This document shows, one piece after another, positions 9,551-19,830 of a stretch of DNA of 25,302 bases. The stretch is taken from NCBI GenBank assembly GCA_045630025.1, contig JAZQSG010000276.1, forward strand, positions 1 through 25,302, given 5' to 3'. The notes under the pieces were generated by a model, which was not told the origin of the DNA, did not search any database, and saw nothing but the letters and a program-made list of their open reading frames with translations. The first letter of the stretch is position 1, and the number at the start of each line of letters is the position of its first letter. This DNA is from Acutalibacteraceae bacterium (GTDB taxonomy: Bacteria > Bacillota > Clostridia > Oscillospirales > Acutalibacteraceae). The translations under genes and the position numbers were made by a program.

Positions 9551-9780
9551 GCGGTGAGGCACCGCTCCCAAGACGTACTGACTGCACTCAAAAACAAATC
9601 CCCGTCACTCGCGCGGTAATGCGCAGGGTAACGGGGATTTTTTATAAATAATATTGGTGGGCACTTTCTCGCGAGCAACAAAAGCAAATTAACACGCGAG
9701 CCAAGTACGTATTGCCAACGGCGGCTCGCCGTAAAGCCCCGTCACTCGCGTGGTAATGCGCATGGTGACGGGGCTTTTTT
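9551..9780 (+). repeat. Modular intergenic repeat cluster A: X(9551-9586)-Y(9600-9636)-Z(9638-9732)-Y(9737-9773)
   Basis: Near-identical to 18762-18959 and to the reverse complement of 13049-13264; lies between the convergent GDPD and AraC genes. Confidence 0.92.
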
Positions 9781-9802
9781 ACAAATATTTCGGGTGAGGG
9801 GC

Positions 9803-10660
9803 TTACTTGCTGTAAACCTTGCGGTATTCGGTAGGTGGCAGCCCCGTTTGCTTTCTAAAAACGCGGCTGAAATACATAGAATCAGGATATCCGCAGCGCT
9901 CGGCAATTTCGGTTACCAACAAATCCGATTCGGCAAGATACCTTTTTGCGTTTTTTATGCGCAGGGCGGTTACGTACTTTTGAGGGGGTACGCCAACCGT
10001 TTTGGTAAACAGATGCAAAAATCTGTCCCTGCCCACGTTGCACTCTGCCGCCAGCTGCTCAATATCAAGGGGGCGGTAATAAAGACGGTCAAGCACGTTC
10101 AAAACCCGCAAAATGCGCTCGTCGGTAACGGTAGAAACCGACGACGGATCGTTTTCGCCAAGCTGACGGTATATCTGCGCAAAAAGCTGCTGCACGTAGC
10201 TTTGCACGAAAAGCTGATATCCCTTTTGCTTCGACTGGGTTTCAATTATCAGCTTCATATGTATACGTTCGATAGCTTTAAGGTCTGAAAGCTGAAAAAT
10301 GTGACCCTCGCTCATTCCTGCCATATCGCACAGCGCACCCACCGAGGTGCCCGATATGTGCAGCCAAAAGGATGCGCAGCGACCCTTGCAAAAGCTATAC
10401 CACTGCGGTTCACCGGGGCGGTAAAAAAGCAGGTCGCCCGCGCTTAAATTTACGGTAACTTCGTTAATCTTTGCAACGCAGCCACCCTCGGTTATAAAAA
10501 GCAAATGATAATCTGCTCTGCCCGTGGGTCGGCTTACTATATTTTCGCTATCGTGGATTTGAGAGCCGCAGCTATTGATAAAAATGGCCTCGTCCGACGC
10601 AAAATCTCTAGCGTGCATATCGTGTTGGGGGATTATTCGCTCGTTAGAAGGATTTTTCAT
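9803..10660 (-). CDS. AraC-family transcriptional regulator
   Basis: N-terminal cupin (RADYHLLFITEG), C-terminal double HTH (EIAERCGYPDSMYFSRVFRKQTGLPPTEYR); start moved to ATG 10660 behind GGAGGT. Confidence 0.93.
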   Translation of the reverse strand: MKNPSNERIIPQHDMHARDFASDEAIFINSCGSQIHDSENIVSRPTGRADYHLLFITEGGCVAKINEVTVNLSAGDLLFYRPGEPQWYSFCKGRCASFWLHISGTSVGALCDMAGMSEGHIFQLSDLKAIERIHMKLIIETQSKQKGYQLFVQSYVQQLFAQIYRQLGENDPSSVSTVTDERILRVLNVLDRLYYRPLDIEQLAAECNVGRDRFLHLFTKTVGVPPQKYVTALRIKNAKRYLAESDLLVTEIAERCGYPDSMYFSRVFRKQTGLPPTEYRKVYSK

Positions 10661-10681
10661 GCTATTACCTCCGTTAGGGGT

Positions 10682-10710
10682 ATAATAACGCCTCTCTTGC
10701 ATATTGTCAA
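10682..10710 (-). promoter_or_regulatory. Sigma-A promoter of the araC-family gene
   Basis: TTGACA-N17-TATTAT on the minus strand. Confidence 0.7.
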
Positions 10711-11015
10711 TAGCAACATTGTCCATATTTTTGGCAGAAAAGGAGTTTTAATGAAAATTATTTTCGTTTTGGCCTTATTAAAAGTCGATTTTTTGTTTCG
10801 TTCTTTAAAGGGTGCAATTCTTTAAAAGCCCTTTAAAAGCTCCTTTACAGCAACATTTACCCATTATAGATGCACCCCTTTTCACCCCTTTTAGATGATT
10901 GCAAAAATATAAAAATAAATTTCACATTCTGTCAAAACGCCTAAAAAAACCATACCGGCACCCGTCGATTAGCAGAAAAGTACAAAAAATGTATAAAAAA
11001 TGACTGTATAATCCA

Positions 11016-11044
11016 TTGAAAAAACGGAGAAAAAAGATTATTAT
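11016..11044 (+). promoter_or_regulatory. Sigma-A promoter of the solute-binding protein gene
   Basis: TTGAAA-N17-TATTAT. Confidence 0.5.
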
Positions 11045-11100
11045 ATAAATGGTAACTAATCTCTTATTACCCATCTTATAAAGATTGTGAGGCAATATCT

Positions 11101-12489
11101 ATGAAAAAAGTACTTTCTGTTCTTTTAATGCTTGTACTTGTTTTTGCACTTTGCATTACTGCTACAAGTTGCCAGACGTCTGAAACAAGCAAAGAAGAAA
11201 CAGGCGATTTTTCCAACTACATCCCCGGCGGTGTAGAAGACGTAAGTGAAGAGGTTTTGCAGGCACTTACCCAATCGGGCACCGTTACCAGCTACGTTTT
11301 CACCAATGAAGACACTGCAGGTCGTCCCCTTACCCTGGGCGGTCTTAACAACAAAAACTTCCAAAAGCTTTTCAACGAGGTTTACGGTGGTACCCTTCAG
11401 CTTGATATGATTACTTGGGAAGGTATGGAAAACACCTTTATCGTTGACTTTGCTGCAAACGAAGCACCCGACCTTATTTACGGTTGCGCCAAGCTTTGGC
11501 CCAAGATGGCTAACCGCGGCATGGTTTACAGCTTGAAGGAGCTTAAAGAGGAGCAAAAGGTTGTAGGTCTTGACCACCCCGTTCTTAAAGATTCTTACGA
11601 GGCAGTTGAAGCCAACTTCACCTATAAGGACGAGTGCTACGGCATTGCCCTTCACCGTGCCGGCTGCTTCTGGTCTATCGTTAACGAAGACCTTTACAAA
11701 AAGTACAACGTAAAGAGCCCCTCTGCTTACTATAAAGAGGGCTTGTGGGATACCGCTGCTCTTGAGAAGTGCTCTAACGAGCTTATCACCGCAGCAGGCC
11801 TTAGCGATAGCGGCACCCGCGAGATCTTTGGTTATTATTGCTGGGATTCAACCGCTTTCGTTCGCGGTAACGGCCAGCAAATCGTCGGCTACGATCCCAA
11901 GACCGGCACCCTGAGCAACAACGTTCAGAAGACTGAGGTTGTTGAAGGTATGGAGCTTCTCCGCCGCGCCTTCCAGGACGGCTGGGCAACCACTAAGGGC
12001 GACCAAGAGACCTTTGCAGCAGGCAAAATCGGTCTTATTGCTGTTACCGATGAAAACGTTTATCCACACGTTAACGCGCTTACCTTTAACTGGTCTCTCA
12101 TCCCCTTCCCCAAGGGCCCCTCAAACACCAACAACCAGCTTCCCGGCTCTGTTTCTGCTTGGATGGTAACCACCTCTGCACAGAATCCCCAGGGCGTTGT
12201 TAACTTGGTTATTGCTTACCTTGCCGCTGTTAAGGATGGCACCCTGCCCCTTGGTGAGGCATGCGTCGAGAGCTTTTTCAAGGATGATCCCGATACCCTT
12301 AATCTTATCAACGACAACAAGGTTAACGGCGTTAACGACAATATGTTTGGCGTTGGTACCTTGTGGAGCGAGCAGTGGGGCTTCTGGAACCAGGTTCGCA
12401 GTGGTAAGAGCACCGTTGCTGAAACCGTTGCTGCTTACTCAGCTATGTTCGATGCTCAGATTGAGCAAGAAATGGCTTATGCCGAGTAA
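11101..12489 (+). CDS. Extracellular solute-binding lipoprotein (ABC family 1, sugar-type), with no adjacent permease
   Basis: Signal peptide with ATSC lipobox, APDLIY, NEDLYKKYNVKSP, WSLIPFPKGP; codon usage suggests high expression. Confidence 0.85.
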   Translation: MKKVLSVLLMLVLVFALCITATSCQTSETSKEETGDFSNYIPGGVEDVSEEVLQALTQSGTVTSYVFTNEDTAGRPLTLGGLNNKNFQKLFNEVYGGTLQLDMITWEGMENTFIVDFAANEAPDLIYGCAKLWPKMANRGMVYSLKELKEEQKVVGLDHPVLKDSYEAVEANFTYKDECYGIALHRAGCFWSIVNEDLYKKYNVKSPSAYYKEGLWDTAALEKCSNELITAAGLSDSGTREIFGYYCWDSTAFVRGNGQQIVGYDPKTGTLSNNVQKTEVVEGMELLRRAFQDGWATTKGDQETFAAGKIGLIAVTDENVYPHVNALTFNWSLIPFPKGPSNTNNQLPGSVSAWMVTTSAQNPQGVVNLVIAYLAAVKDGTLPLGEACVESFFKDDPDTLNLINDNKVNGVNDNMFGVGTLWSEQWGFWNQVRSGKSTVAETVAAYSAMFDAQIEQEMAYAE

Positions 12490-18959: not shown

Positions 18960-18994
18960 ACATAGAGAAATGGGCAAATATATAACCTTTCCCC

Positions 18995-19426
18995 TCAAAC
19001 GCCGCATCCCACTTCTGACAATTCAATTATTTTCTTTCCTTTTTTCTTTGCCAATTCTTTAAATTGCGCCGCACCGCCAAACACTCTGTTAACGTAAGTA
19101 ACAACAATTTGGCTCTTTTCTGTCATCCACTCGTTTCGAGCCGAAATTGCATAACGCTTTGGCACACTTTCTAGCCCTTCGGGGTATATTGTGAGGCAAT
19201 CAACCTCTGAATCTGTTAAATAGGCAAGCACTACCTCAATTTTTATTTGAGCATATTCTTTTTTTAACTCTTTCAGCGTTTTGAGCACCATTTTGTCAAA
19301 ATTTCCATGATGCCCCACTAAAAAATTTTTTACCCCTTGTTTTTTTATTAAATCGGTTAAAATTTCTTTCAGCACGGGCTCTACTGACCACGGAGTATCC
19401 TTATGCCCAAAAAAGGTACACGTCAT
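18995..19426 (-). CDS. SLOG-superfamily YspA/DUF1273-like protein
   Basis: TCTFFGHK, FLVGHHGNFD, RNEWM and GGAAQF...GKKII pattern; GGAGAAGG RBS. Confidence 0.7.
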   Translation of the reverse strand: MTCTFFGHKDTPWSVEPVLKEILTDLIKKQGVKNFLVGHHGNFDKMVLKTLKELKKEYAQIKIEVVLAYLTDSEVDCLTIYPEGLESVPKRYAISARNEWMTEKSQIVVTYVNRVFGGAAQFKELAKKKGKKIIELSEVGCGV

Positions 19427-19447
19427 AATGCCTTCTCCTTGTTAAAA

Positions 19448-19520
19448 TAGTATACTTAATACAAGTATACTAACAACATTATAGCACACTGTAATCTTAA
19501 AATAAACTTAAATTAAGATT
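19448..19520. promoter_or_regulatory. Two dyads in the divergent SLOG/RHH intergenic region (candidate RHH operators)
   Basis: TAGTATACTT-N5-AAGTATACTA (19448-19472) and AATCTTAA-N12-TTAAGATT (19493-19520). Confidence 0.5.
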
Positions 19521-19534
19521 GTTGGTGGATAATT

Positions 19535-19714
19535 ATGAGAAACAAAGAAAACAAGCACTTAGGTATTGAGGTTGAGCCCCAACTTCACGGCAAGTTGCGA
19601 TATATTGCAAAATACGAAGGCCGTTCTGCTAACGGACAGATTATTTATCTAATTCGCCAATGCATAAAAGAGTTTGAACGCGAAAACGGCGAAATCAAAT
19701 TAGAAGAAAATTAA
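19535..19714 (+). CDS. Small Arc-like ribbon-helix-helix DNA-binding protein (59 aa; absent from the supplied ORF track)
   Basis: Translated by hand: MRNKENKHLGIEVEPQLHGKLRYIAKYEGRSANGQIIYLIRQCIKEFERENGEIKLEEN; strand-helix-GRS-helix RHH pattern; GGTGG RBS-like site. Confidence 0.8.
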   Translation: MRNKENKHLGIEVEPQLHGKLRYIAKYEGRSANGQIIYLIRQCIKEFERENGEIKLEEN

Positions 19715-19721
19715 TACCTAT

Positions 19722-19830
19722 TGACTGCACTCAAAAACAAACCCCCGTCACTCGCTTGGTATCGCGCAGAGTGATGGGGATTTTTGTATAATGAAAACCA
19801 CGCGATAGTCGCGTGGTTTTCGTTATACAA
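19722..19830 (+). repeat. Modular repeat cluster D: partial X tail, Y (19742-19779) and the 22-bp-arm hairpin W (19784-19830)
   Basis: TGACTGCACTCAAAAACAAA linker and Y module shared with clusters A and C; W shared with 98-134. Confidence 0.88.

Follow-up and report, generated by a model that had tools for sequence, protein, structure and literature searches.

What are the clusters of short repeats that lie between genes in a 25,302-nucleotide contig from an uncultured member of the Acutalibacteraceae (JAZQSG010000276.1 of assembly GCA_045630025.1), and how do such repeats spread? The contig, hereafter the window, was analysed at its full length. It is the longest of 313 contigs in a metagenome-assembled genome (MAG) of 1.78 Mb that is 90.5% complete (G000). 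An original prediction had described four clusters here, built from shuffled modules named X, Y, Z and W, and had proposed that their structure is being selected. The four clusters and their module orders are present, far above chance (8 X and 7 Y; approximately none expected). Hence, the observation was confirmed and the earlier interpretation partly supported. On balance, we favour the explanation that X and Y, in places with Z, are lineage-restricted mosaic intergenic repeats of an uncultured ruminant-gut Clostridia genus, similar to repetitive extragenic palindromic (REP) sequences and bacterial interspersed mosaic elements (BIMEs). The units occupy the 3′ ends of genes, and the X hairpin falls on the stop codon or beside it. 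They form direct tandem arrays in which the number of units differs between strains. They are also kept at orthologous sites across species, with stems that change in a compensatory way.

The X hairpin and the Y module

X is a hairpin in which a 5–7 bp Watson-Crick stem carries a 3-nt loop; about 3–5 nt from the stem lies a single-stranded tag, CAA(G/T)ACGTACT, that hardly varies. Read tag-first, the module runs AGTACGT(A/C)TTG(G/C), 3 nt, the 5–7 bp stem, a 3-nt S-Y-T loop and the return stem. The pattern GTACGTMTTGS-N8-SYT was found 8 times in the window, against 0.00 expected. The block GTACGT.TTG is invariant, the sole exception being GTAGGT in one copy from another member of the genus (G011). 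The tag of type-A X contains CGTC, and type-B X has CGTA. A search of the whole window with the covariance models of Rfam 15, at E-values up to 1, gave no match on the repeat clusters; the original prediction had likewise recognised no family.

An X covariance model was built from 26 copies, and the 6-bp helix was tested in 26 distinct copies from five species. Pairing was observed in 94.9% of cells, compared with 75.8% when columns were shuffled and 31–56% when the 3′ partner was slid. None of 500 shuffles reached the X score. Changes on both sides were found in five of the six stem pairs, with double changes in 30 cells. One-sided (G-U) changes were absent from all 156 cells. Across the five species there were seven stem variants (CGGTG/CACCG, CGGCG/CGCCG, AAGTG/CACTT, CGGGT/ACCCG, CGGTA/TACCG, TAGTG/CACTA and CGGCA/TGCCG). 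Further arrays added GCGGAC/GTCCGC and GCAGGC/GCCTGC, and the four variants listed earlier hold on direct reading. Taken together, selection of the X stem for pairing is supported. The hairpins are of modest stability as single-stranded DNA (−6 to −9 kcal/mol). The missing wobble intermediates suggest, short of proof, that a DNA hairpin fits somewhat better than an RNA helix. X is thus a short palindrome with compensatory change, as REP hairpins are. It does not carry the GT[AG]G tetranucleotide that REPs have 0–2 nt 5′ of the stem foot.

The second module, Y, usually follows X. It forms a long hairpin in which the motif GTCACTCGC is conserved and which lies between A-runs and T-runs. It therefore looks like an intrinsic terminator that would work in both directions. 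The predicted fold energy is −25 to −31 kcal/mol, and both strands have U-tracts. As at Rho-independent terminators, the GC-rich hairpin is followed by a U-tract; GGGGAUUUUUUAU and GGGGAUUUGUUUUU are examples of these tails. Conservation in Y is highest where it matches the pattern GCGAGTGAYRG, which was found 7 times in the window (0.01 expected). Pairing is kept in 84% of cells, with four covarying pairs, and the right arm, GCGAGTGAC, is far better conserved than the left arm. Drift in Y had been described as often leaving G-U pairs. The changes are not mainly to G-U: wobble pairs occur on either strand, with no strand bias seen among them, and there are true mismatches as well.

Where else do these modules occur? 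Searches with the covariance model counted 17–19 copies of X in this MAG, of which the window has 8, and 21 in the nearest species (G004). Four other members of the genus (G001, G006, G007 and G011) had 1–3 copies each. These counts are lower bounds, because many repeat copies lie at contig ends. Copy number is modest, at 17–21. The other 135 of the 141 genomes searched (8 of the genus and 127 from other genera of the family or order) held weak partial matches and no convincing X. A pattern scan of metagenome contigs for X gave 24 matches, all at 25 bits or less, which is chance level; true members score 48–62 bits. The combined X-Y pattern had no match over the genome contigs, being too strict for relatives. 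Within the genomes and contigs sampled, the small X/Y family is limited to one genus.

Homologous X units occupy unlinked loci, on at least nine contigs, beside unrelated genes. The dispersed unit consists of X and the GCGAGTGAC motif; a full Y may be present or absent, and most units are in direct tandem arrays. Array periods are 61–62 nt (contigs C5 and C40 of this genome, and C137 of the nearest species with five units), 89–90 nt (the window and C5) and 98 nt (C15 and C128 of the nearest species). On contigs from other gut metagenome runs the number of units in an array differs, with joints at which the sequence "goes back 88" and the like. The runs with near-identical DNA are animal gut metagenomes, where the region appears as short, low-depth contigs; none of the RNA runs holds it.

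Comparison with the nearest species shows how the units evolve in place. Orthologous X copies are found at C229/C154, C151/C128, C40/C15 and C67/C15 (this genome first). They are 88.3% identical, and their mostly coding flanks 87.9%; no excess conservation of X over the flanks was found between these two genomes. One orthologous pair has a fully compensated stem, CAAGTG/CACTTG against GTAGTG/CACTAC. At the 3′ end of the AraC-family gene, both species have a cluster, with very different module content. The same gene end in G007 has an ordinary terminator. In the comparison of occupied and empty sites that had been proposed, gene order here differs in G007 and G006, and no clean empty site is definable.

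Layout of the clusters and their neighbours

The first three clusters lie between convergent genes, as had been noted, and direct reading places X against three stop codons (9547–9549, 13047–13049 and 18671–18673), which it abuts or overlaps. A repeat finder recovered direct and inverted families of 79–118 nt, with 84–94% identity, at all four clusters. The genes beside them are of ordinary kinds.

Cluster 1, on the plus strand, is flanked by a GDPD-family gene and by the convergent AraC-family gene (9803–10726, minus strand). Its type-A X (9551–9579) starts 2 nt past the TAA stop of the GDPD-family gene, with the hairpin GCGGTG-AGG-CACCGC and then the tag TCCCAAGACGTACT. The first Y (9597–9645) is the long hairpin CCCCGTCAC...GTAACGGGG, with an A-run before it and a T-run after it, and is terminator-like on both strands. 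Z (9646–9733) comprises an AT-rich linker and an inverted type-B X at 9704–9732, which reads AGTACGTATTGCCA and then the hairpin ACGGCG-GCT-CGCCGT. A second terminator-like Y hairpin (9734–9782) ends about 20 nt before the stop of the AraC-family gene.

Cluster 2 (13049–13354) lies between a YbjN-like gene and an amidohydrolase gene and reads X-Y-X-Y-Z on the minus strand. It has type-A X at 13326–13354 and 13236–13264, Y at 13262–13308 and 13172–13218, and Z at 13050–13170. In this Z, the type-B X lies at 13049–13077, and its hairpin and the TAA stop of the YbjN-like gene overlap. The outer X encodes the last 15 codons of the amidohydrolase open reading frame (ORF; 13308–14144, minus strand). 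Cluster 3 (18673–18959, plus strand) is flanked by a gene for a 143-aa protein and a SLOG-like gene. X is found at 18673–18701 and 18763–18791; the G at the start of the former also belongs to the TAG stop of the 143-aa gene. Y follows at 18719–18767 and 18808–18856, then Z at 18857–18945, with type-B X at 18916–18944, and a truncated Y at 18945–18959. A 0.78-kb block of the SLOG and RHH genes separates cluster 3 from cluster 4 (19713–19788, plus strand), which lies between the small RHH-like ORF and a DUF5050 gene. Cluster 4 consists of a 5′-truncated X tail (19713–19738), with no hairpin and a degenerate core, and a complete Y (19740–19788). The 15-mer AAACCCCCGTCACTC occurs both at 18945–18959 and at 19739–19753. 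A further 26 nt of X tail precede the right copy; the pair is therefore better read as the junction of two repeat units than as a target duplication.

The mosaic character claimed for the clusters holds. As in a BIME, several subtypes of the hairpin (type-A and type-B X) are combined with other motifs (Y and Z) in variable order: X-Y-Z-Y, X-Y-X-Y-Z and X-Y-X-Y-Z-y in this genome, and other arrays at the orthologous sites of the nearest species. Conversely, the 182-bp unit with terminal inverted repeats, running from X to the end of Z, survives only in part. Its inverted ends are real, with 24/29 identity between 13326–13354 and 9704–9732 on direct reading. However, it is not a dispersed unit: the genome's three copies of Z are all found in this window, and none was detected in the nearest species. 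Therefore, the 182-bp unit is a local triplication.

In the nearest species the YbjN-like gene and the 143-aa gene stand side by side and converge on a single X-Y unit between them (C140:3176–4293). In the window (13049–18959) clusters 2 and 3, which are inverted relative to each other, stand at the ends of the same two genes. Between these clusters lie about 5.3 kb with the amidohydrolase, TIR-SEL1, XRE and DegV genes, and the XRE-DegV-143aa block is inverted. The amidohydrolase gene of the nearest species is located elsewhere, without a repeat; it ends earlier, with another gene directly after it. Clusters 2 and 3, inverted around the 5.3 kb where the nearest species has a single X-Y unit, therefore mark a rearrangement junction.

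W (19781–19832), a perfect palindrome with 22-bp arms, had been taken for a module of the same family. Instead, the left half of W forms the conserved head of another repeat, about 370 nt long and here called element 2, which is found across the order and stands outside the X/Y/Z family. This non-coding element has strong structure (RNA fold z = −8.1); the W hairpin, with a TATAAT-like box inside it, stands at its start and a terminator at its end. No Rfam match to it was found. At least eight copies are present in this genome, including a full copy at L021:5225–5600 (minus strand). The 5′ part of another, headed by W, forms positions 1–138 of the window (minus strand), and many contigs, this one included, break inside the element. 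Six copies that were read follow a terminator T-run; in the window, on C9 and C161, and on C140 of the nearest species, Y is the T-run site that abuts element 2 or W. The element occurs in 36 of 121 relatives, in many families of the order, with conserved 5′ and 3′ ends and middles of 370 to about 720 nt. In one gut run the W word has a depth of about 1000, against about 3 for the genome.

Elsewhere in the window, positions 20189–21100 (the 3′ part of the DUF5050 gene and the terminator shared with gyrA) are 97% identical to C143:4718–5629 of the nearest species. Other genes common to the two genomes are 78–92% identical, and a second copy of this segment in the nearest species is 92% identical. 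Recent transfer or gene conversion could account for the high identity.

Candidate enzymes and competing explanations

What could move such units? We propose that the X-Y cassette may supply convergent genes with a stop-proximal hairpin and a terminator. The family would grow mainly by local duplication or unequal recombination. Rare dispersal might proceed via a single-stranded hairpin intermediate recognised by an enzyme acting in trans. The leading candidate for this enzyme, as yet unproven, would be a Y1 HUH protein of the RAYT type.

We found neither TnpA nor TnpB of IS200/IS605 in the assembly of this genome. It has two RAYT-like Y1 HUH genes, at C289:3100–3588 (L025) and C160:278–769 (L026). 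X is found in six of the seven genus members with RAYT-like genes and in none of the seven without. At one orthologous locus, X does stand beside such a gene. G007, G001 and G011 have an orthologous RAYT gene between gyrA and serS, then a terminator, and then X about 55 nt after the RAYT gene. The serS stop codon lies inside the X hairpin, and the adjacency is one-sided. The corresponding part of the window is 21048–23657. There, the gene for an 869-aa protein, which we take to be gyrA, is followed by DUF5050, W, Y and the degenerate X. In G007 (L060) the RAYT gene, terminator and X lie between the homologue of the 869-aa gene and serS. The serS gene of our genome, on contig C300, ends differently and without X. 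G001 also has a similar terminator-plus-X unit with no RAYT gene nearby. The RAYT loci of G007 and those of homologues in other genomes come from entries titled as goat, buffalo or deer gut MAGs of Clostridia, Oscillospiraceae or Acutalibacteraceae.

A number of findings weigh against the reading that we favour. The copy number is low for a REP family, with half of the copies in one 10-kb stretch, and copy number and context are incomplete in a fragmented MAG. The terminator activity of Y is predicted, and the large loop of Y led a simple consensus terminator scan to miss it. Neither RAYT-like gene of this genome has X at its flanks, and nor do those of G004 and G006; the co-occurrence of RAYT-like genes and X is a phylogenetically non-independent count. 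When 80 loci with RAYT homologues (L122–L201) were searched with the X model, the G007 locus (L122) alone matched and the other 79 did not. Three RAYT copies in G007 (L122, L128 and L129) are 93–98% identical, and the stretch that they share begins about 9 nt ahead of the ATG and closes with the stop codon. What was duplicated is thus a bare ORF with no shared ends, and X lies outside it. Finally, within the ORF of the RAYT-like genes, at about nt 110 and nt 300, stand two canonical GTAG hairpins that form an inverted pair, and those of the C289 gene match dispersed intergenic GTAG REP doublets on C13, C306 and C32. We also considered X as the end of a RAYT unit; this was rejected, the G007 copies having only the ORF in common.

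The GTAG doublets (C13:36–110, C306:2846–3072 and C32:1743) have the form GTAGGGGAGGG...CCCTCCC, are spaced about 75 nt apart and are in tandem on C306. A hairpin within the RAYT gene on C289 has the same sequence as one doublet arm. These doublets are a true REPIN-type family in a Clostridial MAG. Hence, the absence of GTAG reported by the original prediction is true of X but not of the genome. At most of the 80 RAYT loci the stem pair of a given gene is identical or almost identical, and stems vary from gene to gene. One published trait of Y1 subclass 2.4 is that REPs are inserted within tnpA-REP genes (PMC6006769), and the hairpins within these ORFs fit it. Since the genes contain GTAG hairpins, one set of which matches dispersed REPs, the GTAG family is more likely than X to be the substrate that these RAYTs use naturally. 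A link of X to a RAYT or other HUH transposase is weak, consisting of the one locus common to three species and the co-occurrence within the genus, and we regard this mechanism for X as doubtful. Of the earlier proposal, selection on the pairing of the X stem stands. The HUH half of it has not fared as well: there is no IS200/IS605 TnpA, and the RAYT-like genes of this genome are without X flanks.

A related proposal is that X is the substrate of a hairpin-recognising ssDNA (single-stranded DNA) enzyme for which the distal ACGTAC tag takes the place of a GTAG foot; a RAYT similar to subclass 2.4, or an unrecognised protein, might fill this role. We judge this unlikely. If true, it would describe a non-GTAG REP system in Firmicutes, with a mobile unit carrying a ready-made two-way terminator, and gene 3′ ends built by a domesticated mobile element.

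Could the modules instead act only at the level of RNA? X would then be a stop-proximal hairpin with a protein or RNase site, Y a terminator, and both, as parts of 3′ untranslated regions (3′-UTRs), would have spread by duplication, gene conversion and recombination without transposition. In all cases that were read, the gene approaches from the side of the hairpin, giving the order stop codon, hairpin, tag and Y. The terminator anatomy of Y, arrays that vary by whole units, the many copies that are orthologous between species and the failure to find a mobilising enzyme are all consistent with this proposal. Furthermore, stop-proximal REPs are documented, and the ends of GTAG REPs frequently provide the TAG stop of the flanking ORF (PMC3733652). 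However, an outermost hairpin would give any mobile element the same geometry relative to the gene. The lack of G-U intermediates in 156 X cells is unusual for RNA helices under structural selection, and units beside unrelated genes at unlinked loci, on nine or more contigs, need some dispersal step. We therefore consider an exclusively RNA-level role rather unlikely.

The inverted ends of X..Z (24/29) could also be read as the 29-bp terminal inverted repeats of a miniature inverted-repeat transposable element (MITE), derived from and moved by a DDE-type insertion sequence (IS) that was lost in metagenome assembly. MAG assemblies often drop IS copies, and many contigs here do end in repeats. 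However, Z is present three times only, within a 10-kb stretch, and was not found in the nearest species; direct reading showed no target-site duplications at unit borders; and most X copies are direct repeats, not inverted pairs. No parent IS was found in the assembly: a self-BLAST for long high-identity repeats or IS copies found none, and returned only paralogues at 65–82% identity. Of the combination expected of a MITE (terminal inverted repeats, a target-site duplication and a parent IS), the inverted repeats alone are present. This makes a MITE very improbable. A duplex binding-site array for a chromosomal protein (acting, for example, in origin-proximal organisation or site-specific recombination), with the stem as a dimer site, would suit the half of the copies within 10 kb beside gyrA, the strictly Watson-Crick stems and the clusters at a rearrangement junction, but it is extremely improbable, given that stem sequence is free to vary while pairing is kept, as fits a folded single strand, and that the asymmetric tag is the only invariant part.

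Comparison with known systems

To our knowledge, REP-like repeats have been described mostly in Proteobacteria. The X/Y family, read here as a mosaic of the REP/BIME kind, offers a compact and tractable case: hairpin evolution is cleanly compensatory, the tag stands apart from the stem and a terminator is built in. Turnover between sister species and the position at a rearrangement junction add to its interest. Should a copying agent be found, the substrate range of hairpin-dependent DNA enzymes would be wider, and mobile repeats would be seen to supply 3′-end signals. Should none exist, the family would be an example of 3′-UTR cassettes spread by recombination alone. Either way, the repeats explain the poor assembly of these MAGs.

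How does the family relate to described repeats? It resembles REP/BIME mosaics, yet it lacks the GTAG foot, the inverted doublets and the high copy number of REPs, and, its inverted repeats apart, it lacks the features of a MITE. Like the subterminal hairpins of IS200/IS605 and PATE or MITE derivatives, the X units are direct hairpins on one strand without target duplication, and a conserved short sequence stands at a fixed distance from the hairpin, as at IS200/IS605 ends. Unlike IS200/IS605, there is no TnpA or TnpB in the assembly, and the family has no definable left and right ends.

Pneumococcal BOX elements (boxA-boxB(n)-boxC) and the Correia/NEMIS elements of Neisseria also consist of shuffled modules, with a variable number of internal modules and stable predicted hairpins. 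Both are intergenic and affect transcripts, and Correia elements have terminal inverted repeats and a TA duplication. Compared by description only, the X/Y family shares the shuffled modules, the hairpins and the intergenic location; the terminal inverted repeats and TA duplication of Correia elements are not seen in it.

The tagged stem-loops without GTAG known as CGTC or atypical palindromic repeats (PMC3733652, PMC6006769) are similar, and the tag of type-A X has CGTC. CGTC families have 8–9 bp stems, 4–5 nt loops and an unpaired tag at one end of the stem-loop (PMC3733652). They have no dedicated transposase (Di Nocera et al., 2013; PMC3733652), and some Y1 subclasses have atypical secondary structures at their flanks (Quentin et al., 2018; PMC6006769). 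CGTC families were reported from Proteobacteria, Chlorobi, Bacteroidetes, Spirochaetes and Thermotogae, not from Firmicutes, and this survey of tagged palindromes lists no Firmicute family (PMC3733652). Unlike these families, type-B X carries CGTA.

REP/BIME sequences of Enterobacteria and Pseudomonas, including the REP/REPIN-RAYT systems, differ from X in that GT[AG]G is at the stem foot, whereas the X tag contains ACGTAC and is about 10 nt from the foot. The X stem has 5–7 bp and a 3-nt loop, and the X-Y unit has the terminator module Y built in. X units are mostly direct tandem repeats where REPs form inverted doublets in tens to hundreds of copies: inverted X pairs are limited to the three Z units, and 17–21 copies stand against hundreds. 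X also does not flank the RAYT genes of this genome. X and the REP sequences are both short GC-rich hairpins with a conserved unpaired tag, extragenic and at gene 3′ ends, often at stop codons, in mosaic clusters with other motifs. Both are lineage-specific in sequence and persist vertically, with several subtypes per genome and a RAYT-like gene in the same genome.

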